From a virus, in the IMG/VR virus record IMGVR_UViG_3300020444_000002, positions 1-64,000 of that record: 64,000 nt of DNA; one strand, written 5' to 3'. Positions 1 to 63,638 of this stretch are shown piece after piece (the first letter of the stretch is position 1; each line of letters opens with the position of its first letter). The notes beneath the pieces were generated by a model, which saw only the letters and a list, made by a program, of their open reading frames with translations, made no database searches and was not told the origin of the DNA. A program made the translations under genes and the position numbers.

Positions 1-43
1 CTTATGAGACCGCCGAGGCTAAACCAATATCCTCATCTCCCCA
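1..43 (-). tRNA. tRNA with CAT anticodon (elongator Met or Ile2), truncated by window edge
   Basis: Minus strand has D-arm GAGG...CCTC, then GCGGT-CTCATAA; 3' half lies outside the window and the 5' end is approximate. Confidence 0.7.
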
Positions 44-48
44 TCGTT

Positions 49-123
49 TGGTGGTTCTCCGAGGTAACGCTCCCCGCACGTTCGGTATGTAACACCGACA
101 TTCTACTTCTGAATTAGAGAACC
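49..123 (-). tRNA. tRNA-Val(TAC)
   Basis: Cloverleaf GGTTCTC...GAGAACC-A-CCA; anticodon arm TCGGT-GTTACAT-ACCGA; atypical T-loop AGCGTTA. Confidence 0.8.
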
Positions 124-617
124 ATATATCTTATTATACCCTCTTTTTTGTTTTCATACCAGCCCAAACGATAGTTACAAGCCCTACACAATAATCCTCT
201 GAACTTTAGCGTTTTATGACAATGGTCTACTGTCAATTTGTCTGGTATTCCTCCTGAACCTTTACTGCTTGAATTTTCTGGTTGCAAGCATATTTCACAA
301 ACGAGTTGTTTCTTGCGGTATTCTTCAAGTTCTCGATATGTGATGTCCAACGTGTCGCCATTTATCTTGACGAAACGATTTAATTTGTTCTCGCGGTTCT
401 TCATAGCTCCTAAAAGACCGACTTCTCTCAAAGAGAGGTTGTTGCTTGGTCTACCTGCCATAGTAGAGCTGACTTTTTTGTTTATTTCTGCACGTTTTGA
501 CTTTGTTGCAAAGCCTCTTGCACATTTAGAAGAACAGAAACGTCCTGAACCGTATTTAGTTGTTAATTTGCATAGGCAGTTTTCACAATTTTTATTTGAA
601 CTTTGGTTTTTATTCAT
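114..617 (-). CDS. Endonuclease VII-family HNH (putative homing endonuclease) inside the tRNA array
   Basis: CEIC...LTVDHCH...RGLLCRACNYRLG motif; start moved to ATG at 617, which lies 6 nt after TATAAT and avoids overlap with tRNA-Ile. Confidence 0.85.
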   Translation of the reverse strand: MNKNQSSNKNCENCLCKLTTKYGSGRFCSSKCARGFATKSKRAEINKKVSSTMAGRPSNNLSLREVGLLGAMKNRENKLNRFVKINGDTLDITYRELEEYRKKQLVCEICLQPENSSSKGSGGIPDKLTVDHCHKTLKFRGLLCRACNYRLGWYENKKEGIIRYMVL

Positions 618-645
618 ATTTTTATTATACCTTAGTTCATTTTTA

Positions 646-720
646 TGGTGGGCGTACAAGGAATTGAACCTTGATTCGTAGCATATAAGACTACTGTCCT
701 AGCCATTGGACGATACGCCT
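646..720 (-). tRNA. tRNA-Ile(TAT)
   Basis: Anticodon arm GTAGT-CTTATAT-GCTAC, T-arm GGTTCAATTCC, encoded CCA. Confidence 0.85.
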
Positions 721-726
721 ATATTT

Positions 727-801
727 TGGTGCGTCCGTAGGGATTCGAACCCTAACCATAGGCTTAGAACACCTTTATGCTATCCATTACACTACTGACG
801 C
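727..801 (-). tRNA. tRNA-Arg(TCT)
   Basis: Anticodon loop GTTCTAA, T-arm GGTTCGAATCC, CCA end. Confidence 0.85.
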
Positions 802-806
802 AAATG

Positions 807-884
807 TGGTGCGTCGCCGAGGACTCGAACCCCGCCTTGATGGTTGGAAGCCACCCGTGCTCAATCCATTAACACTAGCAACGC
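807..884 (-). tRNA. tRNA-Gly(TCC)
   Basis: GGTGG-CTTCCAA-CCATC, GGTTCGAGTCC, CCA end. Confidence 0.92.
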
Positions 885-901
885 ATATTGAATTTTTAAT
901 G

Positions 902-978
902 TGGAGCCGAGTATCAGATTTGAACTGATGACTTCCTCTTTACAAGAGAGGCGCTCTAGCCAACTGAGCTAACTCGGC
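902..978 (-). tRNA. tRNA-Thr(TGT)
   Basis: CCTCT-CTTGTAA-AGAGG, TAGCTCAG D-arm, CCA end. Confidence 0.93.
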
Positions 979-981
979 ACT

Positions 982-1057
982 TGGTTGGGAAGGAAGGACT
1001 CAAACCTTCGGCCTGCCGAGTATCAGTCGGCTGCTCTATCTACTGAGCTACTTCCCA
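982..1057 (-). tRNA. tRNA-Ile(GAT)
   Basis: GCCGA-CTGATAC-TCGGC, TAGCTCAG D-arm, CCA end. Confidence 0.9.
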
Positions 1058-1071
1058 TTACTTGTTAAATT

Positions 1072-1147
1072 TGGAGGGGCGAGTGGGGATCGAACCCACG
1101 ACTATCGGGTTAAAAGCCCGCTTCTCTACCAACTGAGTTACCGCCCC
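1072..1147 (-). tRNA. tRNA-Lys(TTT), first gene of the array
   Basis: GCGGG-CTTTTAA-CCCGA, GGTTCGATCCC, CCA end. Confidence 0.93.
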
Positions 1148-1152
1148 TTATT

Positions 1153-1175
1153 AAAAAAGGGAGTACTTCACTCCC
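1153..1175 (-). terminator. Intrinsic terminator (attenuator) 5 nt before tRNA-Lys
   Basis: GGGAGT-GAAGT-ACTCCC followed by TTTTTT. Confidence 0.85.
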
Positions 1176-1207
1176 CATCACTTCATACTTATGTAAAAAT
1201 GATAGGG
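1173..1207 (-). promoter_or_regulatory. Putative antiterminator hairpin
   Basis: CCCTATCA (directly after the leader stop) pairs with TGATGGGG, which uses the GGG of the terminator 5' arm. Confidence 0.7.
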
Positions 1208-1294
1208 CTACAGTTTGGCTTTGCCTCCGATGACCATAGCAATACCAGCCACTGTTGTGGTGCGCTTTCGTGTGGTTATTGCTGTCTTAGTCAT
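1208..1294 (-). CDS. 28-aa leader peptide MTKTAITTRKRTTTVAGIAMVIGGKAKL (not in ORF track)
   Basis: ATG 6 nt after TATAAT (leaderless); TAG abuts the antiterminator; only 9 amino-acid types. Confidence 0.75.
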   Translation of the reverse strand: MTKTAITTRKRTTTVAGIAMVIGGKAKL

Positions 1295-1300
1295 AAACTC

Positions 1301-1329
1301 ATTATACACCATCACGAAAAATAACACAA
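1301..1329 (-). promoter_or_regulatory. sigma70-type promoter of the leader/tRNA operon
   Basis: TTGTGT-17 nt-TATAAT. Confidence 0.8.
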
Positions 1330-1396
1330 GCCCTTTCGTGAAAAAGGGCAATATAATTTTATTTACAGGGGTGAAGCTAACTTTTTTCTAAAAAAC

Positions 1397-1428
1397 GCTT
1401 GTGTTTTTATTCACAAAGGAGCATAATT
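1397..1428 (+). promoter_or_regulatory. Repeated phage promoter, divergent from the tRNA promoter; further plus-strand copies near 2077, 3611, 4840
   Basis: GCTTGTGT-17 nt-CATAAT; consensus GCTTGC(G/T)TTTTT...(C/T)ATAATT. Confidence 0.75.
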
Positions 1429-1682
1429 GTTTTTTAGAAGGGTAAAAAATAAAAAATGGCAAAAAACAATAAGCAAGAACCAGAAAACCGCAAAAGTAAG
1501 AGCGCTTTATCTAGGTTTAGAGTTTATTACGAAGCAGATAGAAAAGAGCTTCGACCATCATCATCCTTCGGCAAAAGAGAATTGCTGATAGTATACCTCA
1601 CAAAAACAGTCCACCGCACGGTTGTGGGCTTTTTTGTTGATATATACTTAGCACTAAAAGAAATAATAAGGAGAGTAATGTA

Positions 1683-2072
1683 ATGTTCGAAGCACACATA
1701 CAATATTACGCCTACAACAATATAGATGATGATGACTTTGGCGTAGGTTATCTAGGTAACAAACAAGACTGGGTAGAAAGAATTAATCGTTGGAATTGGA
1801 ACGACGGGTTCGATGAACGATTCACCGTAGAGGACTGGGATGATTTAGATTGTCAGCACGATTTTCGCGGTTGCGAATTGGCAGAAATTGAGCCAGATTC
1901 TGACGCTATGCTTGTCACATGGCAAAAGAGCAATCACTCATTTGTTATAAAAATTGAGAAAAACGGTGATATGAAATGGCTAGAAAACCCAAGAAGTTTA
2001 ACAACATTTCCACGATGGATTAACCGAATGAAAACCATGCTTCGAGAGGCTGAAAAAGCACAAAATTCATAA
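1683..2072 (+). CDS. Hypothetical protein
   Basis: 129-aa ORF with AAGGAG upstream. Confidence 0.65.
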   Translation: MFEAHIQYYAYNNIDDDDFGVGYLGNKQDWVERINRWNWNDGFDERFTVEDWDDLDCQHDFRGCELAEIEPDSDAMLVTWQKSNHSFVIKIEKNGDMKWLENPRSLTTFPRWINRMKTMLREAEKAQNS

Positions 2073-2158
2073 AAACGCTTGCGTTTTTTGAAAAAATGAG
2101 CTATAATTACGTTTCAGTGAATGACAAAAGGGCATCACAAAAAAAGAAAGGTAAAAAA

Positions 2159-2389
2159 ATGAGTAGCGAAGAAAAAAAGAAAAAAACGACTAACGAGCAA
2201 AAAGCTAAGAGTGGTTTTGTTAATGCTATAATTGGCTTGGCGTTATTGTTGGTTTTTGGAAGCGTTGCCTTCATGACGGTAGTCATTTGGACTGGTACAG
2301 ACAATGTACTCTACAAATGGTTGACCGCGCCTGCTGCAATCTTTGACCTCATCATAGCATTTGTAGCATTTTCTAAAATAGCAAAATAA
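2159..2389 (+). CDS. Small two-TM membrane protein
   Basis: Two hydrophobic helices; AGAAAGG RBS before ATG at 2159. Confidence 0.65.
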   Translation: MSSEEKKKKTTNEQKAKSGFVNAIIGLALLLVFGSVAFMTVVIWTGTDNVLYKWLTAPAAIFDLIIAFVAFSKIAK

Positions 2390-2447
2390 ACAAGGAAACA
2401 ATTGTTGGTGAAGCTCCCCAGAGTAATGTCTGATTAGCCAACGGATT

Positions 2448-3110
2448 ATGCTTAAAGCAAAAATATTAGGAACTGCTGTAGCTATAACAATCCTAGCAGG
2501 GTTTAGTTATCTGGCAATCAGTAGTGGGATTACAGCCGAAAAGCTTCAAGTGAAGACAATTAAGCTGGAATCGACAGAGGAGAAGCTAAAAGATGTTAAC
2601 CAGGAAGTTAAAAAGCTCAAGACCCAATCCTCTCAAGACAAAGAGAAAAGAAAAAAGTTAGAGAAAGAGAAGGCCGAACTAGAGAGGCAGCTGCAAGCTA
2701 AAGCTGAGGCTAAAGCTAAACTAGCCAGAGCAGCAGAAGCGGCAGCTAGCGCAGTTACATCTAACAAGGCAAGTGCAGCTCCGATACCAACCATACAAAT
2801 AACGGGCAATAAACAAAGCTGGCTCGTTGCCAGCGGCATCCCAGAACACGAATGGGGGTATGTAGATGCAATAGTGTCACGCGAGTCTGGGTGGGACCCC
2901 TGTGCATACAATCCGGGACAAAGCGACTGTAATGCTAGCCCAACGAGCGCCTGCGGGCTTGCTCAATCGCTCCCATGCGGGAAGCAGAGCGTGTACGGCC
3001 ATTGGACCAACCCAGTAGCTAACCTTAAATGGATGAATGATTACGTCAATGGGAGATACGGTGGTTGGGCGCAGGCCGTAGCCTTCTGGAGCGCTAACAG
3101 ATGGTATTGA
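2448..3110 (+). CDS. Exported lytic transglycosylase (aggregation-promoting-factor/SLT-like C-terminal domain)
   Basis: N-terminal signal/TM, coiled coil, then IVSRESGW...ACGLAQSLP...RYGGW...FWSANRWY. Confidence 0.85.
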   Translation: MLKAKILGTAVAITILAGFSYLAISSGITAEKLQVKTIKLESTEEKLKDVNQEVKKLKTQSSQDKEKRKKLEKEKAELERQLQAKAEAKAKLARAAEAAASAVTSNKASAAPIPTIQITGNKQSWLVASGIPEHEWGYVDAIVSRESGWDPCAYNPGQSDCNASPTSACGLAQSLPCGKQSVYGHWTNPVANLKWMNDYVNGRYGGWAQAVAFWSANRWY

Positions 3111-3144: not shown

Positions 3145-3567
3145 ATGGCGTATAAAAATCAAAAATATTGCAAAAAATGTGAAACTGACAAGCCTGTAGC
3201 TGCATACTGGAAGAATAAAACTACTAGTGACGGTCTACAGGCTTGGTGCAAACCTTGTTGGCAGGCACTAGTAGATTCAAAATTAACAGGCGACTCAAGA
3301 GAAAAATATCTTCGTATGAGACGCAATGGCAATCTACTCCGCGCTTACGGTATAACAGCAGACGAGTACGATGTGTTACTTGAAACCCAAGGTAATGTGT
3401 GTGCTATCTGCCGTGAATATCCGTATCAACACAAAAAGCTAGCAGTTGACCATGACCACGCAACAGGTAGGGTTCGTGGGATACTATGCGAGAATTGTAA
3501 CAGAGGAATAGGAATGTTCAAAGACAGACCTGAACTTTTACAATCGGCAATAGAATATTTATCCTAA
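3145..3567 (+). CDS. Endonuclease VII-family HNH
   Basis: CAIC...LAVDHDH..GRVRGILCENCNRGIG; N-terminal zinc finger; leaderless start. Confidence 0.9.
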   Translation: MAYKNQKYCKKCETDKPVAAYWKNKTTSDGLQAWCKPCWQALVDSKLTGDSREKYLRMRRNGNLLRAYGITADEYDVLLETQGNVCAICREYPYQHKKLAVDHDHATGRVRGILCENCNRGIGMFKDRPELLQSAIEYLS

Positions 3568-52334: not shown

Positions 52335-52703
52335 ATGTGGTATAAAGATAAGCGAGGTGTCTGGAAGAAGGACACTAAAAAGAATTTACAAATTGTTTCT
52401 CCCTCGACTCTAAGGCGTAAACGAGAAGCGTTTGAAAGAAAAAAACTCACCCCCGGATTTAAGAGGTGGAGGGTTTATCAATATAGAAAACAGGGTGGGT
52501 TATGCTTTTACTGTCGGCATAGAATCGACGGCGCTTGGCACACCGACCACTTTGTCCCGCTTGGGAGGTTCTATGGTACTAATGCCTACAAAAACTTGAG
52601 GGTCTGTTGTTCGCATTGCAACTACTACAAATCTGTACAGTACCCGACAGCTAGACTACTGTCCGAACTACGCCTTGGGCGTGCCTGTAGGGGCGCGCAC
52701 TAA
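52335..52703 (+). CDS. HNH endonuclease
   Basis: QGGLCFYC...HTDHFVPL...NLRVCCSHCNYYK. Confidence 0.82.
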   Translation: MWYKDKRGVWKKDTKKNLQIVSPSTLRRKREAFERKKLTPGFKRWRVYQYRKQGGLCFYCRHRIDGAWHTDHFVPLGRFYGTNAYKNLRVCCSHCNYYKSVQYPTARLLSELRLGRACRGAH

Positions 52704-53467
52704 ATAGTTTCAAGAAGTTTCTTCTTGTAGGTAGAAGTAGCTAGACGTAGCTCCCATGTCCCCTTGCCCTTACTAACATAAGCCTTGCAATAGTCTGGGT
52801 ATTCTTGGGCAAGTATCTTTGCGTAACGCTCAACACGCTCGTTGGTGCGAGTTTCTTGCATGCCACCTTGCTCCTTATAATATGCAGTGTTCACGGTAAT
52901 ATAATTCAGACGGACCACACCTTTTTCTTTGTCGAAGTGTTTTAGTGTACGGAGGTAGTCTTCTTTTTCGTCAAATTCAACACGCTGGAAGCTTTTTTTG
53001 CGATTAATAATACCGTAACACGACCCAATAATATAGTGCAGTCCTTCTGTCACATCATTATCCATGAAGAAATAATTACGAGCTGCATAGATACCCCATA
53101 AGCTCTTACCCTGTTTTTCACACCAGTCAAACCCTTTCTCCGCGAAGGCAAGCACATTAGTATCTGGTATGAGTCGTTTGCCGTCTGTGCTTAACTTCTC
53201 AAAGGAAACAATATCGTCATCCAGGAACAATATTTTCTCACCTTGTGGGTAGTAGTCAAGGATAAAGTTTCTATTACCTGCCAAAGTCGGAACAGAATCG
53301 ACAACTTTCACCATATTGCCAGTGCCACTAACATAGGCATCATGCTCTTCTGGGTCAGATATGAACACAGTAACATTATCAAGTGGGACACCGCTGCGAA
53401 CTAACGCTGATATTGTTTTCTCAAATACCGTATGACTACGACGGTAGCTAGGAATTGCTATTTGCAC
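52700..53467 (-). CDS. TET-associated (GREB1-like) glycosyltransferase
   Basis: IAIPSYRR...NRNFIL...LDDDI...EKEDYLRTL...GGMQ. Confidence 0.85.
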   Translation of the reverse strand: MQIAIPSYRRSHTVFEKTISALVRSGVPLDNVTVFISDPEEHDAYVSGTGNMVKVVDSVPTLAGNRNFILDYYPQGEKILFLDDDIVSFEKLSTDGKRLIPDTNVLAFAEKGFDWCEKQGKSLWGIYAARNYFFMDNDVTEGLHYIIGSCYGIINRKKSFQRVEFDEKEDYLRTLKHFDKEKGVVRLNYITVNTAYYKEQGGMQETRTNERVERYAKILAQEYPDYCKAYVSKGKGTWELRLATSTYKKKLLETI

Positions 53468-54311
53468 TTTTAGCCTTCTCCTCTTCGATCATATGTAATA
53501 GTTTCTCAAGCTTTCTGTCTTCTGCCTTTTTAGCGTTTGCAACTTCGAGTGACGTCTCTAGGCAGTTCCACATTTGTACAAGCGAGTAGAAAACAATCGT
53601 GAACCTATAACTGCTAGGGCTTGTACCGCGCATAGGGGTAACACCATGGACAAAGCGCTGCCCGTCAAACATAGATAGTGAACCATTGCTAATTTTTAAG
53701 TTCACCTGTAGTTCTGGTACATGGAGATACCCGCCTTTAACATCCTTTTTGAGGCCCAACATAATAGAGAACACATTTTTAAAATTACCAGTGTCAAGGT
53801 GATATTTAAGTGGATTGTTCTTGTTGATAATCCCACTTGTGAAATGGGTCTCTGGCATCAAATATTCGCCACGAACATTAGCGGCAAGTTCAGAGTGGTT
53901 TTGGTACCTTTCTGGAGCAAATTTACCATACAACTCCTCAGCGATATGGGCCACATGGAAAAGTTCGTCCTCAATACTCTTGTACTTATTTCCAAAGGCA
54001 GTCTTAGAGCATGTTTTCTTACCGGCCAAACCAACCATACGCGGTCGATAGCCAATAATCTCAGATTGGGTAACAAGCCCGTTTGTTCGCTTGTTCACAG
54101 AAAACTTTACGCCAGCCAAAGCGTCAATCATACCAGTCGTGTCGATTTCACTTTCGTTATCCTTGTAAATAACAAGTGTCTCACCAGTGGTCTCCTCGAT
54201 AATAACTGTGTCTTCGTCAATTATCGGGTCGTTATTCTCTAGAGCTTTCTGGCTAAGGAGTTCTTTGGTGTTTTTTGGGGCTTGCGCTAGATTAACGTAT
54301 AGCTTCTTCAT
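53448..54311 (-). CDS. TET/JBP-family 2OG-Fe(II) dioxygenase
   Basis: FTSGIINKN...YHLDTGN (HxD)...GGYL...HGVTP...RFTIVFY. Confidence 0.87.
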   Translation of the reverse strand: MKKLYVNLAQAPKNTKELLSQKALENNDPIIDEDTVIIEETTGETLVIYKDNESEIDTTGMIDALAGVKFSVNKRTNGLVTQSEIIGYRPRMVGLAGKKTCSKTAFGNKYKSIEDELFHVAHIAEELYGKFAPERYQNHSELAANVRGEYLMPETHFTSGIINKNNPLKYHLDTGNFKNVFSIMLGLKKDVKGGYLHVPELQVNLKISNGSLSMFDGQRFVHGVTPMRGTSPSSYRFTIVFYSLVQMWNCLETSLEVANAKKAEDRKLEKLLHMIEEEKAKSANSNS

Positions 54312-56294: not shown

Positions 56295-57308
56295 TTATTC
56301 TACCTTTTTCTTCTTATGGTTGTCAAGTATTATGTCCGTTCTTTCGTTGGAGAACTTTAGTCTCTGAGAAACGCCGACATTGATGTAGTTTGTAAGTTTG
56401 TTACGCGAAACATTTGGTTTATCTATGAAAGACAAACCGTTCCAGCCCAGCAATTGCCTCCACGCCTCATCCACAGTGTATTCTATGTCTGGCACGAAAA
56501 ATTCTACCCCCTCAAATTCTGGGTATATGTCTAACACGAGAGCCATTTCTGGCAATATACGGACAAGAAGCCCCATTTTCTGTAACTCAAGAATACCAGT
56601 GTCACGATGCTTTGACATCAACAACTTATCCAACTCCTGCACCCAACGCTCCACCGACACATCGTAAATACGGTCTGCAAGCTGGCGAGCCTTACCGATA
56701 AAGTTAGGGTCAATAGTGAAGCCATATCTCGCAGCGAATCGTGCAGCGCGAAGCATGCGCAGTGGGTCTTCCTGGATTCTATCCTTGTCATTGCCGACTG
56801 TAACAATCTGCTTAGAGTGAATATGCAACTTGCCACCATATGGGTCATAGATTGTTCCATCTGGACGAAGCACCATGGCGTTCATAGTGAAGTCACGACG
56901 AGCTAAATCTTCGTCTAAAGAAGGCACAAACTGGACTTCTGGCTTGCGAGACTTGTTAGTGTATACTTCTGAGCGGAAGGTTGTTACTTCAACGTACTCA
57001 TATACTGTCTTTTCTGACCAATATTCCTCATTCACCTCGTCTTCTTCGCTGTAGTACTCTTCGTTGACAGTTACCACATATGGCACCTTAAACCCAATAG
57101 TGCCAAATTTCTTGCCGATTGCATAGGATTTACGTCCAGCCTCTTTTACCTTAGCCTCAATATCATCAGGAAGCATAGAAGTAGTGAAGTCGTAATCTTT
57201 TGGCTCATTTCCCATAACTACATCACGAACAGAACCGCCAACAAGATACACCTCATCAGTTCCGAGGATTTCAATTACTTGTTTTTGTATTGCTAATGCT
57301 TTTTCCAT
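56295..57308 (-). CDS. CCA-adding enzyme / poly(A) polymerase family nucleotidyltransferase
   Basis: YLVGGSVRD, DYDFTT, EDLARRDFTMNAM, EDPLRMLRAARF. Confidence 0.93.
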   Translation of the reverse strand: MEKALAIQKQVIEILGTDEVYLVGGSVRDVVMGNEPKDYDFTTSMLPDDIEAKVKEAGRKSYAIGKKFGTIGFKVPYVVTVNEEYYSEEDEVNEEYWSEKTVYEYVEVTTFRSEVYTNKSRKPEVQFVPSLDEDLARRDFTMNAMVLRPDGTIYDPYGGKLHIHSKQIVTVGNDKDRIQEDPLRMLRAARFAARYGFTIDPNFIGKARQLADRIYDVSVERWVQELDKLLMSKHRDTGILELQKMGLLVRILPEMALVLDIYPEFEGVEFFVPDIEYTVDEAWRQLLGWNGLSFIDKPNVSRNKLTNYINVGVSQRLKFSNERTDIILDNHKKKKVE

Positions 57309-57804
57309 TTTTGTTGTGCCTCATTAATATGTGTTTTACGTCCTTTTTTGTTTCAGCGTCCATAATTGGTGTGTCGTCTGGATATATAGTGGTAACCATA
57401 CCGTCGTCGGAATACCGCCTATCTGGGTGTTCAAGTATTTCGCTAACAACATCCAGCATATCTACACCCTTGTACCTTTCTAAGTATCTTACAATTGCAT
57501 GGTCAGATACTTTGCCGGAAACTTTTACTCCTGAATATTCTCCTTTTAGCTGGCCGATAGATTGAGATATATGCTTTATAGCCTGTACCGTTTCTTTCAT
57601 TTTATGGCTTATAGCATCAATCTTCTTACTATGGAGGTTCCTTTCTCTTTTCATCTCTGATAACCCCTCCGTAAGGACCTTTCGCTTCTCGACTAACTTT
57701 TTTAGCCTCTCTTCTTTGTCCATAGTCACCTCATTAACTGGTCCCACATGCCAGGTCTGTAATGGCCAACCTTGATATAGTTTGAGAGTGTGACACTGGC
57801 CCAA
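57271..57804 (-). CDS. Coiled-coil hypothetical protein (start probably MDKEE at 57723)
   Basis: VSDHAIVRYLER motif. Confidence 0.6.
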   Translation of the reverse strand: MGQCHTLKLYQGWPLQTWHVGPVNEVTMDKEERLKKLVEKRKVLTEGLSEMKRERNLHSKKIDAISHKMKETVQAIKHISQSIGQLKGEYSGVKVSGKVSDHAIVRYLERYKGVDMLDVVSEILEHPDRRYSDDGMVTTIYPDDTPIMDAETKKDVKHILMRHNKNGKSISNTKTSN

Positions 57805-57865
57805 TATAGAACTTTCTCGTCCTGGCTTTCTGGGTTCAACTCATGCGGCGCTGGAAAGTCCTCCA

Positions 57866-58591
57866 TCAAACATTAACCCTTCTGATACTGTACAATATCT
57901 TATCAAGTTCTGCCCAATTAGGTTCATCTGGCAGTACAGAGGTAATATCTTCCAGCTTGCTATCCTCGGCTATGAATGTATCAACGACTGTTTCTGGAGT
58001 TTGTTCCCCCATCTTGAACAGCCATTCTCGCTGCTCTGGCGTGACACGAACCGTAAGTTCACCAGTTTCAAGGAGCTGGCGACACTGTAGCAACAGGCGG
58101 AAGCAATGGCGGGTATGCTTTGCAAAACGATTCTTCATAGAGCTATCGTAACCTTCCATGCCCTCTGCCTGTCGCTTGCTCAACTTCATTGCTTGCCCAA
58201 GCGCATACCCTCTATATGCATTCATAACTGCCCTTGTAGACAAAAAGCTCTTTCGGTTCTCGACAAGTATTTTACCGACAGGGGTAAGAACAGTATAGTC
58301 GTCAAGCCACAGCAATTCTGAGAAAGTAGGATTGCCATTAGCCACTAATTTCATAAATTTTCCCACTTCATGATATACCCAGTCTGGGTCTACATGGTCT
58401 TTTGTGGTTTTTGCCGGGTTAAAGTTAAGGGACAAGACAGTGCTTGTTGGTAGAACATACACGCCTTTAATATCAATGTCAGAATTTTTCGTATCTAGCC
58501 CGTAGGCTACAGACCCAGTAACGCCCTCTAATATAATGTCTAGTCCGCCTGGCCGCTGTTCTTCTGCTATTTTCTTAAAATCTCTTTTCAT
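57866..58591 (-). CDS. Pol-beta superfamily nucleotidyltransferase (YcgL/RlaP-like)
   Basis: GSVAYGLDTKNSDIDIKGVY...NGNPT..ELLW...HCFRLL. Confidence 0.85.
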   Translation of the reverse strand: MKRDFKKIAEEQRPGGLDIILEGVTGSVAYGLDTKNSDIDIKGVYVLPTSTVLSLNFNPAKTTKDHVDPDWVYHEVGKFMKLVANGNPTFSELLWLDDYTVLTPVGKILVENRKSFLSTRAVMNAYRGYALGQAMKLSKRQAEGMEGYDSSMKNRFAKHTRHCFRLLLQCRQLLETGELTVRVTPEQREWLFKMGEQTPETVVDTFIAEDSKLEDITSVLPDEPNWAELDKILYSIRRVNV

Positions 58592-58646
58592 TTTTTCTAC
58601 CTTAACCTCTATTATAAAGAAGTTTAAGCGTTTTCGCAAGAGTTTT

Positions 58647-59817
58647 TTAAGACTTTATTTCACGAACGTAACGACCAGTAACATTACTCTCAGCATAGAA
58701 AGAATTATATTCTCTCTTTTTTGCCAATAACTGGTCAATCAATTTTAGGTCACTCTTCTTGACCTCTAATTGACGCACTTTGTGACGAGCTGGTGGCTTA
58801 CCAGTGTAAAAGTGTATATAGCTACTATCTAGTTCTTTTCTTAGCAATTCAGCAAGGTCTTTTATTGGTTCTTTGTCGCTATTAGAATCATAGAAATGTA
58901 TCCATGCAAAAACCTTAACAGGCTTATCCAACTTTCTCCATCTAGTCTCACGACGATTGTACGACCATGGCTGTCTAGTTTCTATACTATACTCTTCCAT
59001 AGTGTCCCACACCTCACCAATACATATATCTGTCTGGGTAAGGGTAGAATACACCCCACCAATCTCCCACTTAGAAGTCTTTTTAGCCTTCTTTAAATTA
59101 GCCTTTTGCTGCATATCCGCCATAGCCTCTTTGTAAGCTTCCATACCTTCATGGATAAACCCTGGCTGCCCCCCACGACGGGCAAACATAACACCTTCTG
59201 TTACCCGACCATTCTTCATATCACTATTACGAATAAGGTCTGCAAGGATAGAATCATTAACGCCGACGATGAACTCTACGCCGTCTTTCTCAACCCTACA
59301 TTTCCAGAATGAAAGACGACCACCCTGCGAAGAACCGCCAGCAGAATCTAAAATTGTGACTATAAACCCTTTGTTATCAAATGTATGTACGTTGGGTTCA
59401 TACACAATAGTCTCTTTTTTGCTATCATACTTGTTTTCATAACGACGTGCCCATTCCTCAGCCTTTACACGAGAATCATTATCATCTGCATCAAATATAT
59501 AACCACTAAACTGTTCTCTACCTCGCCATTTTTCGGGTTCGCGCGAACAAATAGCCACACCAACCTTGTCCATCATTTTCCAGTAATTATACGCCATTAT
59601 TACCTTTCTGTATTAGTTCATACCATGATTCAGCATCTATCTCGTCAGTGTCAAACATATGTTCACCGCAGTAGCTGGTGTAGCCTATAGACCTATTAAA
59701 GTCGTTACAGTCAAGGTTCATCAAGGCGGCATATATATGCGCCACTTCGCGACCAGTTACCTCAACCTTGAAAACCTTCTCGTCAAAACATTTTTCGCCA
59801 TTATCTAATATTTTCAT
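58647..59817 (-). other. Hypothetical ORFs 58647-59597 (316 aa) and 59587-59817
   Basis: Co-transcribed with the Pth2-like gene. Confidence 0.62.
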
Positions 59818-60296
59818 ATTCTAGACTCCAGAAATTCTAATGTTTTTTTCATCCAACGTGGCGTGTCATCTACCGTGCTAACTCCGTCGAACAACTGGAA
59901 CCCATTAGCCACACGACTCAAGTGTTTATAAGCATCCCTGTAACTATTACCGTCACCACTAAATAACTTGAACGGAGCAAATATTTCTCGCTTTTCTTCA
60001 TCATCATGGTCAATGGGTTCAACCGCCAAAGCCGTAATGGAATAAGCGCTAACTTCATTAACACCTTCGTCAATATATTTCATAGAAAATAACTCGGCAG
60101 TGTTAAGATATTCCTCTAGATTACGAATCTGCTCAGAGTTTTCTGCTTCAAGTACAATTACTGTTCGCTTGTAGTTATCGGCGAACCCAACACCTGCATT
60201 TTGCAATGACATTGCTGCATGAACAGCTTGTGCTGCTGCCTTGCCAGCGCTCATATTTAGTTCTTTGTTCAGCACGACATATAGTATCTTACTCAT
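59814..60296 (-). CDS. Peptidyl-tRNA hydrolase, Pth2 family
   Basis: LNMSAGKAAAQAVHAA...IDEG.NEV...TALA; leaderless start TACAAT-7-ATG. Confidence 0.85.
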   Translation of the reverse strand: MSKILYVVLNKELNMSAGKAAAQAVHAAMSLQNAGVGFADNYKRTVIVLEAENSEQIRNLEEYLNTAELFSMKYIDEGVNEVSAYSITALAVEPIDHDDEEKREIFAPFKLFSGDGNSYRDAYKHLSRVANGFQLFDGVSTVDDTPRWMKKTLEFLESRI

Positions 60297-60344
60297 ACTA
60301 TCTATTGTAGTGGTTTTGCGACAAAAAAGCAAGAGCTTTTTGCA

Positions 60345-61247
60345 CTAAAATTTATAGTTTACATCCCCAAACTGGGCTACATTTATACCATAAACATCAC
60401 GAAGCATGTCGGCTACTTGTGGGCGGTCATCGAACCAAATAAGAATATTATACTTCCCCTTAATGTACCGTTCAATCATATCTGCTTTGACGAGCGTATC
60501 CTTAACTTGACCGCCGTTCTCATCAACATGGTCGGTCCTGCGCATATAGAGTTCATCATATTCAATGTCGTGTTTCTCCAACCAGGCCTCTGTTTCCGGG
60601 CGACACACCTCATCCCGGCCACTAAAAATAAACAACTTAGCGTAATCTATCAAAGCGATACCATCTAGCATGTGCGCAAGGCCTAAGTTAATATCGTCAT
60701 TCCCTACCTTGTGCCATTCGTAGGGGCTTCTATCTTTTGGCCCTGTTGTAAGTGTGCCGTCCAGGTCGGAAACAATAACATAAGGCAGCTCTGGGTCGTG
60801 TTTCAAGAACGTGGGCATTGTCTTCACGAAACTGTTAAACATCTTGCGAATCACCTGTTCGCCTACTGAATTTTCTCTATTAGCGTCCCGTCTTATTAAC
60901 TCTGCTATTGGAATATCTAGGAAGTCTTTTGTCCTAACATTTGCTCCAAATTCTCGCGCAATTGATGATATTCCGCTAACGTGCTTGGGATTGAGATTTG
61001 TGTCTGAACTGACGACGTTCTTGCCACTTGCAAGGCTGTTTCGTATAATGCGATTACGCTCTTTAAGTACAATCGACTCGTCACCACGTTTATAGTTGTA
61101 CTGTCCGTCCTTAAATAACCTTTTGTCTTTTCTAATTTCATCTTTTTCTACCCGTACCCAGCCTTCTGTTTCTAGCTTTTTTGCATATGTTGTTTTACCG
61201 CTAGCCGGAAGGCCGCGCAATATAAGCATTTGTAGTCTTTCTGTCAT
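60345..61247 (-). CDS. Polynucleotide kinase / 3'-phosphatase (T4 PseT-like)
   Basis: RGLPASGKTT kinase plus DLDGTL...SGR...FDDR HAD phosphatase. Confidence 0.93.
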   Translation of the reverse strand: MTERLQMLILRGLPASGKTTYAKKLETEGWVRVEKDEIRKDKRLFKDGQYNYKRGDESIVLKERNRIIRNSLASGKNVVSSDTNLNPKHVSGISSIAREFGANVRTKDFLDIPIAELIRRDANRENSVGEQVIRKMFNSFVKTMPTFLKHDPELPYVIVSDLDGTLTTGPKDRSPYEWHKVGNDDINLGLAHMLDGIALIDYAKLFIFSGRDEVCRPETEAWLEKHDIEYDELYMRRTDHVDENGGQVKDTLVKADMIERYIKGKYNILIWFDDRPQVADMLRDVYGINVAQFGDVNYKF

Positions 61248-61249
61248 GT

Positions 61250-62536
61250 CTATTCAACTTTTCCTTCTTCTTCCATATCAAGGGTACCATCGGCAACTGC
61301 TTGGTTGTCATGACCAACAAATGTCGCACTCTTGCATTTAAGTGTAAATGGAGCAATCCCCTCTGCGCGAATTACTACGCCCTCATCACATGGAGTATCT
61401 TTATCTAATGGGACAGCCTGTGGATAGCCGTCCTCTTTATATCTATGTAGTGTTTCATGGCCAGCAAAGTCAGCCCATTCTTCTGGCTTGAAGTCTTTAT
61501 ATTTCCCCCTCCACAGCAACGGAACAACCTTTAAATCACGGTCGCGACAAAACTCTACAATCTGGTCGTAACTCATGTCCAAAACAACACCCTCTGGGTT
61601 AATTGTTGCAACACGATACACATATAGCTCTGCAAGACCCTGTGGCACTTGGTATGTGTACTTACTCTGCAATGGCGCACCGTCAGCAGTCCAACCAACT
61701 AGTTCCCCATAAACAAGATAGCCTTTTGGAATCTTACCAACCAGTTTCTCTCCCTCTGTAGACCAAATATCAGTATCATAGAAGTGAACATGAGTAGGGT
61801 TATTTTTATCTTTAATAACTCTACGGCTACCGTACACATAATCATACTCCCTGTCTACAACAGTTACACCGACCTTATGTGCAATCTTTTCGAGACGCGA
61901 TAACTTACGGTGAACAATCGTATTGGCGATACGAATTGAAGTACCGTGCAACTTCTGTGTAACTGTTACTTCTTTTTCCTCCGGGATTACATGGCTATAC
62001 TTGAAGTAATTATCTGTATCATAGTGTTGTGGCAGGAACTTTTCATCAACACGGCTAAATATTTTTTTGTTCTTTTCTAGCACCCTCTCTTTATGCGTGC
62101 GCTTACGAACAAACTTACGGCAGATTTCATGGTCGCCAATACGGTCAAAAGTGTCACCCTCTTTGAATTGCGATAAATCTAACCTTTTAATATAAGACAA
62201 CGAATCAAGCCCGACAATTAGCGCATCTGAACGATGCCCGCGCAATTTTAGTGAGCGAACATGACGGTTGTCCTCTAGGTAGCCAGATTGTGACTGGTCT
62301 TCGTTTTTGTCGTTATGGCGGTGCAGGTTATTCCTGTAGGCAAATTCCTCAGATAATTGCGTACCAGCAGTGAATACTAATGCAAGCTCTCCATAATCAG
62401 AGTCTTTAGCGACAAGAGCCTGGCTTCCCAGCACTTGAAGACCTACAAGGTTGTCTAGACCTTCTAGGGCCACAGGTGACGGCAAGCGCACTATAACACC
62501 TGCGTAATCTTTGTTATCCGGTTCAAGTAATTTCAT
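61250..62536 (-). CDS. RNA ligase (DRB0094-like) with N-terminal OB-type domain
   Basis: TQKLHGTS, YGELVG, VPLL, EGVVIR, LKCKS. Confidence 0.85.
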   Translation of the reverse strand: MKLLEPDNKDYAGVIVRLPSPVALEGLDNLVGLQVLGSQALVAKDSDYGELALVFTAGTQLSEEFAYRNNLHRHNDKNEDQSQSGYLEDNRHVRSLKLRGHRSDALIVGLDSLSYIKRLDLSQFKEGDTFDRIGDHEICRKFVRKRTHKERVLEKNKKIFSRVDEKFLPQHYDTDNYFKYSHVIPEEKEVTVTQKLHGTSIRIANTIVHRKLSRLEKIAHKVGVTVVDREYDYVYGSRRVIKDKNNPTHVHFYDTDIWSTEGEKLVGKIPKGYLVYGELVGWTADGAPLQSKYTYQVPQGLAELYVYRVATINPEGVVLDMSYDQIVEFCRDRDLKVVPLLWRGKYKDFKPEEWADFAGHETLHRYKEDGYPQAVPLDKDTPCDEGVVIRAEGIAPFTLKCKSATFVGHDNQAVADGTLDMEEEGKVE

Positions 62537-62849: not shown

Positions 62850-63638
62850 TTACGGTCCGGCATGCCAAGTTTTGCTATTACCAAGTTTTGTAAGATTAAT
62901 AACAAGGGAATTACCCTCTGCCGGTATTTTGAGAGTCTGGCCATTTACCTCCGTTAAGTGGTCAACGGGAACGAACCAATCTATGTAATTCTGAAACCCG
63001 CACTTTCTAATATCAAGGCCGAGGTTAACATCCGGGCCAAGGCCATTGTCGCTATGAAAGTCATGTTGCTTGTATAGGTCAGCTCTGATTAACGCACAAT
63101 AAAGCCCGCAAGCGTCAATCTCCTCCACTAAACTGCTACCAACCTTACTCTCCATACTCTTCACAATTTTAGTTTCGTATATATCATCAGCTCTCCAAGC
63201 GCCGACGTACGGTATACCCCAACGGCCTAGTTCTACACCAGTAACCATTCCCACGTTTGGCTTTGACTCAGCGTCATTAACAAGCCAGGACAGTGCATTC
63301 GGCGGCAACAGACCATCATCCTCAACAGAAAATATCCAATCAACGTCGTCGCTAACAAGACGTTTTATTTGGTTGTGTATAGCACTGATATGCCAACGCC
63401 TTTGCGGTATTGTGCTAGCTGGGCTGTTTGATGCTTCACTCTGCACACAAAGTACATCTGCGAACGGCAATGATGAGACTTTGTTTCTAACCTTTAGCCA
63501 CATTTCATTGTCCCCATCAACGACAACTAATAGCGAAAGGCGTTCTTTGTAAGATTGGTTTAATAGCGAAGGTAAAACATAATCAAGATATTGTATCCTG
63601 CTTACTGGTAGAATTGTTAAGATTTTCATATTTTTCAT
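62850..63638 (-). CDS. GT-A fold glycosyltransferase-like protein
   Basis: VEDDGLLP DxD-like motif; IDACGLYCALI; GPDVNLG. Confidence 0.7.
   Translation of the reverse strand: MKNMKILTILPVSRIQYLDYVLPSLLNQSYKERLSLLVVVDGDNEMWLKVRNKVSSLPFADVLCVQSEASNSPASTIPQRRWHISAIHNQIKRLVSDDVDWIFSVEDDGLLPPNALSWLVNDAESKPNVGMVTGVELGRWGIPYVGAWRADDIYETKIVKSMESKVGSSLVEEIDACGLYCALIRADLYKQHDFHSDNGLGPDVNLGLDIRKCGFQNYIDWFVPVDHLTEVNGQTLKIPAEGNSLVINLTKLGNSKTWHAGP

Follow-up and report, generated by a model that had tools for sequence, protein, structure and literature searches.

A probable leader-peptide attenuator in front of the first tRNA operon of a phage, one of three such gates in a single genome

The 86-kb genome of the IMG/VR record IMGVR_UViG_3300020444_000002 (G000), from a marine phage, carries tRNA genes sorted in three blocks that jointly serve all 20 amino acids, with the isotypes K, I, T, G, R, V, M and A in block 1, E and Y in block 2, and W, D, N, P, F, C, L, S, H and Q in block 3 (tRNA-Ser(GCU) being found at relaxed threshold). 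The window, that is the whole stretch of 64,000 nt that was analysed, corresponds to positions 1–64,000 of this record and begins inside block 1, where the order of the genes is Lys, Ile, Thr, Gly, Arg, Ile, Val, (Met), Arg, Ala and Lys (Table 1). The tRNA-Val(UAC) gene, a relaxed-threshold call here, is called at the default ARAGORN threshold in the related record G001 and in the metagenome contig L021. An earlier note, made from the letters of the window, had remarked that the Ala and Arg(CGN) codons of the leader described below lacked tRNAs in the truncated array and had asked whether these lie beyond it; tRNA-Ala(UGC) and tRNA-Arg(ACG) are present near the opposite end of G000 (86030 and 86203), and both occur in the corresponding block of the two relatives. 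Synteny with these relatives is the sole basis for the view that block 1 spans both ends of the G000 record, in which no terminal repeat of 11–200 nt and no tRNA spanning the junction of the two ends were found. Among the other genes of the phage are those for an RNA ligase, a polynucleotide kinase-phosphatase (PNKP), RlaP and a CCA-adding enzyme, a tRNA-repair set which suggests that the phage meets tRNA damage.

Table 1. Positions of the block 1 tRNA genes, of the elements of leader 1 and of the two further leader units
Feature	Position in G000	Strand	Remarks
Divergent promoter TTGTGT-17-CATAAT	1399-1427	plus	rightward genes
-35 box TTGTGT	1329-1324	minus	kept in G001 and L021
-10 box TATAAT	1306-1301	minus	spacer 17 nt; invariant across three versions
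Leader-1 ORF, 28 codons + TAG	1294-1208 (TAG 1210-1208)	minus	ATG 6 nt past -10
Antiterminator hairpin, 35 nt, CCCTATCA...TGATGGGG	1207-1173	minus	begins one base past stop codon
Intrinsic terminator GGGAGT-GAAGT-ACTCCC-T6	1176-1153	minus	stem 1176-1158, T run 1158-1153
tRNA-Lys(UUU)	1147-1072	minus	first gene of array; 5 nt past T run, spacer AATAA
tRNA-Ile(GAU)	1057-982	minus	
tRNA-Thr(UGU)	978-902	minus	
tRNA-Gly(UCC)	884-807	minus	
tRNA-Arg(UCU)	801-727	minus	
tRNA-Ile(UAU)	720-646	minus	
TATAAT ahead of internal endonuclease gene	629-624	minus	6 nt to ATG; no -35 motif
Endonuclease VII-type gene within array	ORF 617-114	minus	
tRNA-Val(UAC), unusual T loop	123-49	minus	ARAGORN, relaxed threshold only
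CAT-anticodon piece, candidate tRNA	47-1	minus	interrupted by record end
Leader 2 unit, MTNSVSYYEEEYNS	80375-80244		beyond window; heads tRNA-Glu, tRNA-Tyr
Leader 3 unit, MSELCTQHQPSQLWNPDSFLVGART	80025-79850		beyond window; heads Trp, Asp, Asn, Pro, Phe, Cys, Leu, Ser, His, Gln

The first tRNA gene of the array is preceded by a compact unit, leader 1, whose ORF codes for MTKTAITTRKRTTTVAGIAMVIGGKAKL and is followed by two overlapping hairpins, the last four bases of the antiterminator being the first four of the terminator (GGGG, 1176–1173). A divergent promoter lies on its far side, and leader 1 receives no same-strand transcription from upstream. The promoter, ATG, 28-codon ORF, hairpins and tRNA-Lys lie on the minus strand exactly, to the base, where the earlier note had placed them, and its counts also held: the peptide uses 9 residue types, 23 of its 28 codons stand for T, K, I, G, R, V or M, and all three Ile codons occur together with four ACA, two AAA and one GGA. 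An extended 47-aa frame opening at a TTG (1351) was rejected as a gene, as G001 has a stop five codons before the ATG and only the ATG is conserved; searched against the protein collection, this frame has no relative (the 28-aa form being too short for such a search), and the leader-1 peptide matched no Pfam or PHROGs family. The only RNA families that reached the gathering score in 1–2500 were the six tRNAs, and neither the T-box nor any other leader family matched this region at E values up to 10.

The leader-1 mRNA is predicted to be leaderless, with the ATG at the start of the transcript, and no Shine-Dalgarno sequence is apparent. TTGTGT shares only 3 of its 6 bases with TTGACA, and a generic sigma-70 scan called none of the three leader promoters. 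A phage-specific promoter pattern, TTGYRT-N16-18-YAWAAT, occurs at 19 sites in G000, about 17 of which share an extended consensus, and an ATG lies 6–7 nt past the -10 box at five of the 19. Three of these five have short ORFs and are exactly the heads of the three tRNA blocks; the other two open ORFs of 154 and 91 aa, and because these long ORFs show the same geometry, leaderless mRNAs are apparently used by the phage. In G001, the tRNA strand of the first 20 kb has just three sites of this pattern, and these are the three leaders. Inside the array, the TATAAT ahead of the endonuclease gene could act as an internal promoter, so that distal tRNAs bypass gate 1; the earlier note, which took this gene for an HNH gene, had raised the same possibility, and the TATAAT-6-ATG arrangement (629–615) agrees with it.

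A 152-nt marine metatranscriptome contig matches 1121–1272 without mismatch, from the leader ORF to 32 nt past the terminator (5 nt of spacer and the first 27 nt of tRNA-Lys), and hints weakly but directly at readthrough of leader 1, from a library which may include DNA carry-over. Two metatranscriptome runs yielded no contig on 1–1120 or 1273–1538, the Logan contigs having a depth of 3–5 at which gaps are uninformative, and runs X10 (probably DNA) and X1 held only tRNA-like pieces of other organisms.

The earlier note had proposed a search for the leader in related phages. Homologues of leader 1 were found in G001, an IMG/VR record of 99 kb whose terminase is 77% identical to that of G000, and in the metagenome contigs L021 and L025, which are identical across the unit; a further contig, L022, matches the leader unit of G001. 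All three versions share one order, namely promoter, 6 nt, ATG, an ORF of 28–30 codons (28, 29 and 30), stop and CCCTAT, an overlapping terminator with T6, and Lys(UUU), the last being a tRNA or tRNA-like sequence. The stop is TAG or TAA, keeps its position and abuts the antiterminator arm in every version. The two indels inside the ORF are of 3 nt each, and those of the hairpin region are of 1, 1, 2 and 1 nt. In the tail of the peptide, AMVI(R)GGKAKL, the versions differ by synonymous third positions and by TAG/TAA; the N-terminal halves vary freely, yet within the amino-acid set of the block, and as read from the alignment 7 of the 8 replacements between G000 and L021 stay in the block 1 set. 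The unit is conserved in these two uncultured relatives. Since MAFFT placed gaps inside the hairpins, the folds of the individual sequences were compared rather than alignment pairs. The stems of leader 1 show compensatory changes, among them C-G to U-A in the antiterminator, covariation here meaning a handful of pairs seen in 3, 2 and 2 versions (leaders 1, 2 and 3) at about 82–84% mean column identity across the aligned units.

Other searches returned little. With blastn and tblastn, 50,697 GenBank phage records gave tRNA matches or distant proteins only, and the neighbouring 129-aa protein, used as a query for related loci, gave none. The exact terminator pattern had no match in IMG/VR, where a degenerate pattern of the leader-1 tail retrieved G001 only; a looser tail pattern retrieved 12 stretches from metagenomes, three of them real (L021, L025 and L022) and nine rejected as GC-rich chance matches, and genome contigs contained nothing that fits the tail pattern. 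Likewise, the leader-3 pattern found G001 only, and the leader-2 pattern found 20 stretches in IMG/VR, one being G001 and the other 19, which were discarded, ordinary gene C-termini without a tRNA within 400 nt. The 367-aa neighbour of leader 2 led to 17 loci of unrelated smaller phages, 16 without a tRNA and one with a single tRNA-Met, and these were set aside.

Leaders 2 and 3 head the two other tRNA blocks of G000 and have the classical four-region layout with 1:2 pairing. The three leader peptides are mutually unrelated and have only the design in common. Region 3 of leader 3 has AG in one genome and GA in the other and still keeps 9 bp with the invariant GGCGCUCGG, and the terminator is maintained by two compensatory pairs. 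The leader-2 antiterminator amounts to only about -3 kcal/mol in both genomes. A conserved TATAAT past the terminator of leader 3 could be a promoter that feeds distal genes beyond gate 3; the GC-rich stretch of about 400 nt past the same terminator matched no RNA family.

Each peptide was then compared with the tRNAs of its block. All isotypes of a block are represented in its own leader peptide (8/8, 2/2 and 10/10 for leaders 1, 2 and 3), and own-block residues make up 26/27, 6/13 and 17/24 of the three peptides in G000 (3x3 chi-square, p = 2e-10), 24/29, 5/13 and 22/29 in G001 (p = 8e-9) and 26/28 of leader 1 in L021. Among 742 short ATG ORFs of 13–31 aa, the own-block share of leader 1 (96%) and that of leader 2 are each reached by the leader itself alone, and coverage of all ten isotypes, as in leader 3, is reached by 233 of 300,000 random proteome windows. 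Leader 2 also includes 5–6 Asn, Ser or Leu residues of block 3. At the level of codons, strict wobble allows the anticodons of the own block to read 17/27, 15/29 and 18/28 codons in the three versions of leader 1, 6/13 and 5/13 in leader 2, and 14/24 and 21/29 in leader 3, counting the default-threshold anticodons for G000 and leaving out Ser(GCU). Many NNC and NNU codons of family boxes are unreadable under this rule, so they would need expanded reading by U34 or host tRNAs. The match of peptide to block is robust for isotypes and partial for codons, and the earlier suggestion that the codons of leader 1 mirror the anticodons of its array stands in part under strict wobble (17 of 27 codons). 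A pure codon sensor would not account for the strong conservation of the tail AMVI(R)GGKAKL.

The folds of the leaders were examined with an equilibrium model in which a ribosome is represented by a masked footprint of arbitrary size. The antiterminator hairpin of leader 1 reaches -17.0, -16.0 and -16.4 kcal/mol in G000, G001 and L021 when each sequence is folded separately. RNA that starts at the stop codon forms the antiterminator (-17.0, -17.8 and -16.4 kcal/mol) and not the full terminator, and masking 14 nt, counted from the stop codon, as a terminating ribosome would do, lets the terminator form instead (-10.5, -11.1 and -8.2 kcal/mol) in the three versions, which bears out the two alternative states that had been expected. 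P(term) is 0.94–0.96 with a ribosome at the last codons (0.94 in G000) and 0.19, 0.47 and 0.02 without a ribosome in G000, G001 and L021; leader 1 has no 1:2 pairing that would enforce termination when it is untranslated, and readthrough is predicted if no ribosome is present. Modelled transcription of G000 terminates when the ribosome sits at the stop codon and reads through on an upstream stall; in this equilibrium model the switch is clear in both G000 and L021, and G001 shows it less strongly. Leaders 2 and 3 have a P(term) of 0.94–0.98 when untranslated, and in leader 3 of G001 P(term) never falls below 0.5. In nascent RNA the 5' arm of the terminator is captured by an upstream partner in 7 of 7 leaders. 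The total fold of leader 1 (-41 kcal/mol) is modestly more stable than expected (z = -2.28; 4 of 200 shuffles as low), and shuffled sequences with a minimum P(term) at or below the observed one and P of at least 0.8 at the stop numbered 5/60 for leader 1, 1/60 for leader 2 and 0/60 for leader 3. Own-block residues occupy 35 of 38 positions in the zone where a modelled stall opens the gate and 14 of 26 outside it (p = 7e-4).

On these grounds we propose, with a probability of about 0.7, that leader 1 controls the first tRNA operon by leader-peptide transcription attenuation and is one of three such gates. The reading of the locus as a ribosome-mediated attenuator of a tRNA array, already put forward in the earlier note, has gained from the conservation of the unit, the masked folds, the two further units and the Ala and Arg tRNAs of the block. 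Host RNA polymerase would initiate on the A of the ATG, give or take one base, and thus produce a leaderless mRNA whose 28-codon ORF a ribosome would then translate; such translation is indirectly supported by the conserved frame, the synonymous changes and the long leaderless ORFs. A ribosome that promptly arrives at the stop would cover the CCCUAUCA... arm, which starts one base further on, and with this arm covered GGGG would be free to build the GGGAGU/ACUCCC-U6 terminator, which, if functional, would stop transcription 5 nt short of tRNA-Lys. If the ribosome lags or stalls within roughly the first 25 codons, the antiterminator hairpin would form first and sequester GGGG, and polymerase would continue into the block 1 tRNAs. 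Because the peptide contains all eight isotypes of the block and almost only those, a shortage of any one block 1 aminoacyl-tRNA should open the whole block, and the newly made tRNAs should close the gate again in a demand-driven feedback. Such a device presumes some coupling of ribosome and polymerase. The endolysin of the phage is similar to those of Lactobacillales phages; if the host is a Firmicute, coupling may be poor, and transcription and translation are reportedly uncoupled in Bacillus subtilis. As to the trigger, we infer a failure of host tRNAs, by cleavage or depletion, or demand; a failure of host tRNAs is plausible because the phage has tRNA-repair genes.

The same attenuators might serve supply control in general, the trigger being the decoding demand of the phage itself (homeostatic control), a late loss of host tRNAs or of their charging, or amino-acid starvation. 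We regard this as a less probable account that still deserves weight: the mechanism responds to slow decoding of whatever cause, three gates that cover all 20 amino acids do not look like an answer to a single nuclease, and the leader promoters are of the same class as about 14 other phage promoters. Against it, amino-acid starvation is not relieved by extra tRNA, the RNA ligase, PNKP, RlaP and CCA-adding enzyme suggest tRNA damage, and tRNA-Lys(UUU), a classic nuclease target, lies directly behind gate 1. Alternatively, translated ORFs could be followed by terminators that are fixed, leaky dampers of dosage and by hairpins that stabilise or process the RNA, with no switch at all. The slight stability of the leader-2 antiterminator, the leader 3 of G001 that never opens in the equilibrium model and the 5/60 shuffles that mimic leader 1 would all fit such dampers; this reading is nonetheless improbable, for it leaves unexplained the peptides made of own-block isotypes (p = 2e-10), the antiterminator arm that directly follows the stop in each of the three versions, and the pairing of region 3 of leader 3 with both partners despite the change from AG to GA.

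The amino-acid conservation of the C-terminal half of leader 1, which persists through synonymous changes and exceeds the needs of a codon sensor, would be expected if the ORFs encoded small functional peptides (membrane, regulatory or arrest peptides) whose adjacency to tRNA genes is incidental or which act as nascent chains. There is little probability in this either, given N-terminal halves that vary within the amino-acid set of the block, three unrelated peptides with only a design in common, and the lack of matches in Pfam and PHROGs and of a relative of the 47-aa frame in the protein collection. Chance ORFs in a non-coding leader or processing RNA, with ordinary terminators or RNase sites and a coincidental composition, are very improbable: the ORFs are indeed short, the z-score of the leader-1 fold is just -2.28 and no Rfam family matches, but a coincidence would have to produce three independent units within one genome, ORFs kept in the relatives with 3-nt indels, own-block shares that none of 742 short ORFs but leaders 1 and 2 attain, and a ten-isotype coverage as rare as 233 in 300,000 windows.

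The attenuator proposed here resembles the enterobacterial leader-peptide attenuators, of which thr senses Thr and Ile and ilvGMEDA senses Ile, Leu and Val, with trp, his, leu and phe as further examples, in its promoter-proximal short ORF rich in the sensed residues, in the position of a ribosome deciding between terminator and antiterminator and, in leaders 2 and 3, in the 1:2 pairing. In contrast to them, it is borne by a phage and would regulate tRNA genes rather than biosynthetic enzymes, its mRNA is predicted to be leaderless, and its peptides name as many as 10 isotypes, with one or a few codons for each and no run of a single codon. The thr/ilv/his-type geometry claimed for leader 1 is thus supported for the modelled switch between a stop-masked antiterminator and a terminator but not for the 1:2 element, and without it leader 1 reads through when untranslated in the model; 1:2 pairing is typical of leader-peptide attenuators and not present in every member. 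T-box riboswitches, usual in Firmicutes, likewise respond to the state of a particular tRNA by settling on either a terminator or an antiterminator, but they bind the tRNA directly, lack an ORF, measure 200–300 nt and control synthetase or amino-acid genes, whereas leader 1 uses an ORF and no T-box covariance model matched in 1–2500. The tRNA-Phe genes of Escherichia coli possibly have attenuator-like leaders. The terms pheU, pheV and 'tRNAPhe gene' are absent from PMC3082878.

Two cellular systems share part of this logic. Mycobacterial whiB7 is preceded by a uORF attenuator that, like the one proposed here, reports ribosome stalling, and it goes up after the toxin VapC5 cleaves a tRNA (PMC10287673). 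In contrast to leader 1, it is cellular, its output is a transcription factor and it is not known to be indexed by a set of isotypes. The trn operon of Anabaena sp. PCC 7120 is a long silent tRNA array that is turned on under translational stress (PMC10272220, PMC8421152), and in this respect it parallels an accessory array kept off until such stress; its control is assigned to a protein repressor, TrcR (PMC10272220), instead of a leader peptide and a terminator. Our literature search, which covered mainly open-access journals, returned no description of tRNA genes, whether of phage or cell, under the control of a leader-peptide attenuator.

The presence of tRNA genes in phages has long been debated, and the proposed reasons include compensation for codon usage, the replacing of host tRNAs that have been degraded, and evasion of defences that cleave tRNA. 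If a gate opens on slow decoding of its own isotypes, phage tRNAs would be produced as demand arises, which would also explain the sorting of the tRNA genes into blocks. We tentatively extend the proposal, at somewhat less than even odds, to an isotype-indexed supply, in which three operons would each be gated by a leaderless roster peptide naming all its isotypes. If so, the loss of a single tRNA species, whether through a host anticodon nuclease, phage-induced host shut-off or codon demand, would switch on the very operon able to replace it, and the operon would go off once decoding recovers; the leaders would be the sensing arm of a viral tRNA-protection programme that also includes the RNA ligase, PNKP, RlaP and CCA-adding enzyme. 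Each leader would then serve as an isotype-specific reporter of tRNA supply during infection, and leader-peptide attenuation would extend from amino-acid operons to tRNA genes and to viral leaderless mRNAs.

The promoter pattern TTGYRT-N16-18-YAWAAT occurs at 19 sites in the whole phage record (G000), about 17 of which have in common a longer consensus, centred on GCTTGCGTTTTT and (C/T)ATAATT. Five of these sites have an ATG 6-7 nt past the -10 box. Two lead into ORFs of 154 and 91 aa, while the other three, which lead into short ORFs, are exactly those that head the three tRNA blocks and are called here leaders 1 to 3. A generic scanner called the terminator of leader 1 and missed its promoter because TTGTGT agrees with TTGACA at only 3/6 positions; we consider this promoter credible since it follows the phage-wide pattern and its common extended consensus. 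The upstream genes are transcribed in the other direction from their own promoter copy, thus no transcription enters leader 1. A terminator-like hairpin found in G000 only (GCCCTTT..AAAGGGC, 1330-1349, both strands) abuts the -35 box, and at this place an inverted repeat is formed in the relatives by the two divergent -35 boxes. Leaderless messages seem normal in this phage beyond the tRNA leaders, judging from the two sites that start the longer ORFs: the 91-aa gene (window 49944, minus strand) and the 154-aa gene (G000 72828, plus strand) both start 7 nt past a phage -10 box, without a Shine-Dalgarno sequence.

Leader units and RNA-repair genes (window positions unless marked G000; L027 is a stretch of G000)
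Feature	Position	Strand	Remark
Leader 1 -35 box TTGTGT	1329-1324	-	
Leader 1 -10 box TATAAT	1306-1301	-	17 nt past the -35 box
Leader 1 ORF MTKTAITTRKRTTTVAGIAMVIGGKAKL	ATG 1294, TAG 1210-1208	-	28 codons; ATG 6 nt past the -10 box
Leader 1 antiterminator hairpin	1207-1173	-	35 nt; first base directly follows the stop codon
Leader 1 terminator stem	1176-1158	-	GGGG shared with the antiterminator hairpin
Leader 1 terminator T6 run	1158-1153	-	then AATAA
tRNA-Lys(UUU)	1147	-	then Ile(GAU), Thr(UGU), Gly(UCC), Arg(UCU), Ile(UAU)
Divergent promoter copy of upstream genes	1399-1427		opposite direction to leader 1
Leader 2 MTNSVSYYEEEYNS	G000 80375-80244 (L027 6375-6244)		GGGGC...GCCCC overlapping a terminator with T6; then tRNA-Glu, tRNA-Tyr
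Leader 3 MSELCTQHQPSQLWNPDSFLVGART	G000 80025-79850 (L027 6025-5850)		10-bp terminator, then ~400 nt of GC-rich RNA
RNA ligase	61250-62536	-	
Polynucleotide kinase-phosphatase	60345-61247	-	
RlaP-family nucleotidyltransferase	57866-58639	-	
CCA-adding enzyme	56295-57308	-	

The peptides encoded by the leaders mirror the tRNAs that follow them. The isotypes are K I T G R V M A in block 1, E Y in block 2 and W D N P F C L S H Q in block 3 (ordered Trp, Asp, Asn, Pro, Phe, Cys, Leu x3, Ser, His, Gln, Ser, Gln), which together make up all 20 amino acids. Leaving out the initiator Met, residues carried by the tRNAs of the leader's own block account for 26/27, 6/13 and 17/24 positions of leaders 1, 2 and 3 in G000 (3x3 chi-square p=2e-10), for 24/29, 5/13 and 22/29 in the related phage G001 (p=8e-9), and for 26/28 of leader 1 in the metagenome contig L021. 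Every isotype of the block is found in its peptide (8/8, 2/2 and 10/10); leader 3 includes Cys, Trp and His, and among 300,000 equally long windows drawn at random from the proteome only 233 equalled its coverage. Among the 742 short ATG ORFs of G000, the own-block share of leaders 1 and 2 is reached only by the leaders themselves, and that of leader 3 by 48. The earlier note had counted the leader 1 codons correctly, and its proposal that codons mirror anticodons is borne out in part; strict codon matching is incomplete (e.g. 17/27 in leader 1, using the G000 anticodons found at default threshold, hence without Ser(GCU), a relaxed-threshold find), so the signal is at the isotype level.

Homologous versions were compared for leader 1 (n=3), leader 2 (n=2) and leader 3 (n=2), and only these. 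The leader 1 unit recurs in G001, a 99-kb IMG/VR phage whose terminase is 77% identical, and in L021/L025, one metagenome contig found twice. Both have the promoter, 6 nt and an ATG that opens an ORF (MSERIAVMTKRTTPIVQATAMVIRGGKAKL and MATRTIATTKRTTTVAAFAMVIRGGKAKL; 30 and 29 codons) whose TAG/TAA stop abuts CCCTAT; a long hairpin and a T6 terminator overlapping it come next, ahead of tRNA-Lys(UUU) or a sequence resembling it. In G001 this Lys(UUU) copy (locus stretch L012, about 2700-2775) has a degenerate T arm and escapes default ARAGORN. In the alignment, indels are of 3 nt within the ORF and 1-2 nt within the hairpins. Third-position changes leave KRTT as well as the tail AMVI(R)GGKAKL conserved, and this conserved tail asks for an additional explanation; elsewhere residues vary within one small alphabet, both residues belonging to the block 1 set for 7/8 replacements between G000 and L021. 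Alignment and folds indicate that the stems vary compensatorily: the antiterminator, for instance, has U-A in place of C-G, and the terminator C-G in place of G-C. On the tRNA strand of the first 20 kb of G001, the only promoter sites other than that of leader 1 are those of leaders 2 and 3, with peptides MINSNTYYEEESNL and MKNLSCQHQLPQLWNNSDSFSGARAVGFSL.

Predicted folds bear out the two alternative states that the earlier note had proposed for leader 1. When folding starts at the stop codon, its three versions adopt the antiterminator (-17.0, -17.8 and -16.4 kcal/mol), and with 14 nt masked, mimicking a terminating ribosome, into the terminator (-10.5, -11.1 and -8.2 kcal/mol). The modelled terminator probability, 0.19, 0.47 and 0.02 for RNA free of ribosomes, reaches 0.94-0.96 once the A site is at the final codons. 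Leaders 2 and 3 of G000 are predicted to behave like textbook attenuators: the probability is 0.94-0.98 both untranslated and with a ribosome at the stop, and drops to 0.01-0.12 once the ribosome occupies S-Y-Y-E in leader 2 or T-Q-H-Q-P-S-Q-L-W in leader 3. The CUUCUUCUU past the stop codon of leader 2 pairs in the fold with the Glu codons GAGGAAGAA. The predicted antiterminator of leader 2 is feeble. The 5' arm of the leader 3 terminator pairs in both genomes with the invariant GGCGCUCGG (Gly-Ala-Arg codons); it reads AG in one genome and GA in the other, this pairing being retained and the terminator preserved by two compensatory pairs. In G001, leader 2 opens (0.02-0.34) and leader 3 stays at 0.5 or above throughout, under an equilibrium model that is weak for this phage. 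Shuffling all the sequence upstream of the terminator reproduced the switch in 5/60, 1/60 and 0/60 cases for leaders 1, 2 and 3. Own-block residues make up 35/38 positions within the modelled gate-opening stall zone versus 14/26 outside (p=7e-4), or 33/36 versus 16/28 with an alternative mask (p=0.002), and the model places out-of-set residues at stall-insensitive positions: the C-terminal Leu in leader 1, VGART in leader 3, and TNS and NS in leader 2.

A marine metatranscriptome contig of 152 nt (one library, depth 4, 0 mismatches) covers window 1121-1272, from the leader 1 ORF through the terminator to 32 nt beyond (5 spacer nt and the first 27 nt of tRNA-Lys); it fits readthrough transcripts, such contigs being strandless and devoid of true ends, with DNA carry-over possible. 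Between the leader 3 terminator and tRNA-Trp lies the GC-rich stretch (G000 79438-79850; L027 5438-5850, minus strand), in which no ORF was seen and no Rfam family matched; its first ~50 nt are alignable with G001, and it may be an unknown structured RNA produced under gate 3. A conserved TATAAT directly follows the leader 3 terminator; this box and another at 629-624 might let transcription bypass the gates.

The phage is of siphovirus type, with a tape-measure protein, and its 86,430-bp record (42% G+C, the window being the first 64 kb) has no close relative among GenBank phages. Its DNA is present in several marine metagenome studies, and its endolysin, which combines Amidase_5 with a binding domain of zoocin type, is 31-36% identical to those of Lactobacillales phages. 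ARAGORN at default settings found 23 tRNAs, to which relaxed settings and Rfam added Val(UAC), Trp(CCA) and Ser(GCU); all are on the minus strand, spread over 1147 to 1 at one record end and 86203 to 76510 at the opposite one. Several have non-canonical T loops, AGCGTTA in Val (window 49-123, minus strand) and Trp (G000 79364-79437), and are missed by default ARAGORN. The record is cut within a CAT-anticodon tRNA-like sequence (window 1-47; other end G000 86430), and joining the two ends forms no tRNA. A tmRNA-like gene (G000 73947-74285, minus strand) matches the Rfam tmRNA family with E=6.7e-8, under the gathering score and cut by the locus end, and relaxed ARAGORN calls there a permuted tmRNA with a tag peptide. 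Two endonuclease VII-type genes lie at window 114-617 (minus strand), inside the tRNA array, and 3145-3567 (plus strand). A TET/JBP-type dioxygenase with associated glycosyltransferases (window 52700-54311 and 62850-63638, minus strand) suggests DNA hypermodification.

The leader 1 unit would act in the manner of the multivalent thr and ilv leaders, whose testable defining features it shares save the 1:2 element, and it is not a T-box, no such match being obtained in window 1-2500 at E up to 10. By function, the nearest systems would be the whiB7 uORF attenuator, described as sensing stalling that follows tRNA cleavage (PMC10287673), and the Anabaena trn array, described as induced by translational stress via the repressor TrcR (PMC10272220; PMC8421152). 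Both leader peptides and leaderless messages are reported in Corynebacterium (PMC3890552). In line with the earlier note, which knew of no attenuator controlling a phage tRNA cluster, the literature searched, subscription journals and supplements aside, yielded none on tRNA genes. We rate these units as a variation on known leader-peptide attenuation.

From sequence and modelling, we propose, with a probability of about 0.7, that every tRNA operon of this phage is gated by a leaderless test ORF. A ribosome promptly reaching the stop would cause termination, and slow decoding of any codon for the operon's isotypes would allow readthrough, yielding new tRNAs that would close the gate again. Efficient translation would shut leader 1, whose default state would be open, and leaders 2 and 3 would be closed save when a ribosome stalls within them. 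Against this proposal stand the small number of homologous versions, the weakness of the model for G001, the feeble leader 2 antiterminator, the conserved tail of leader 1 and the possible bypass from the TATAAT boxes; in a Firmicute host, moreover, ribosome and polymerase may be poorly coupled. As to the presumed trigger, plain demand control fits equally well; the RNA-repair genes, and tRNA-Lys(UUU) as the first gene past gate 1, point to host nucleases that damage tRNAs, and the repair set (window 56295-62536) fits a phage that expects such damage.
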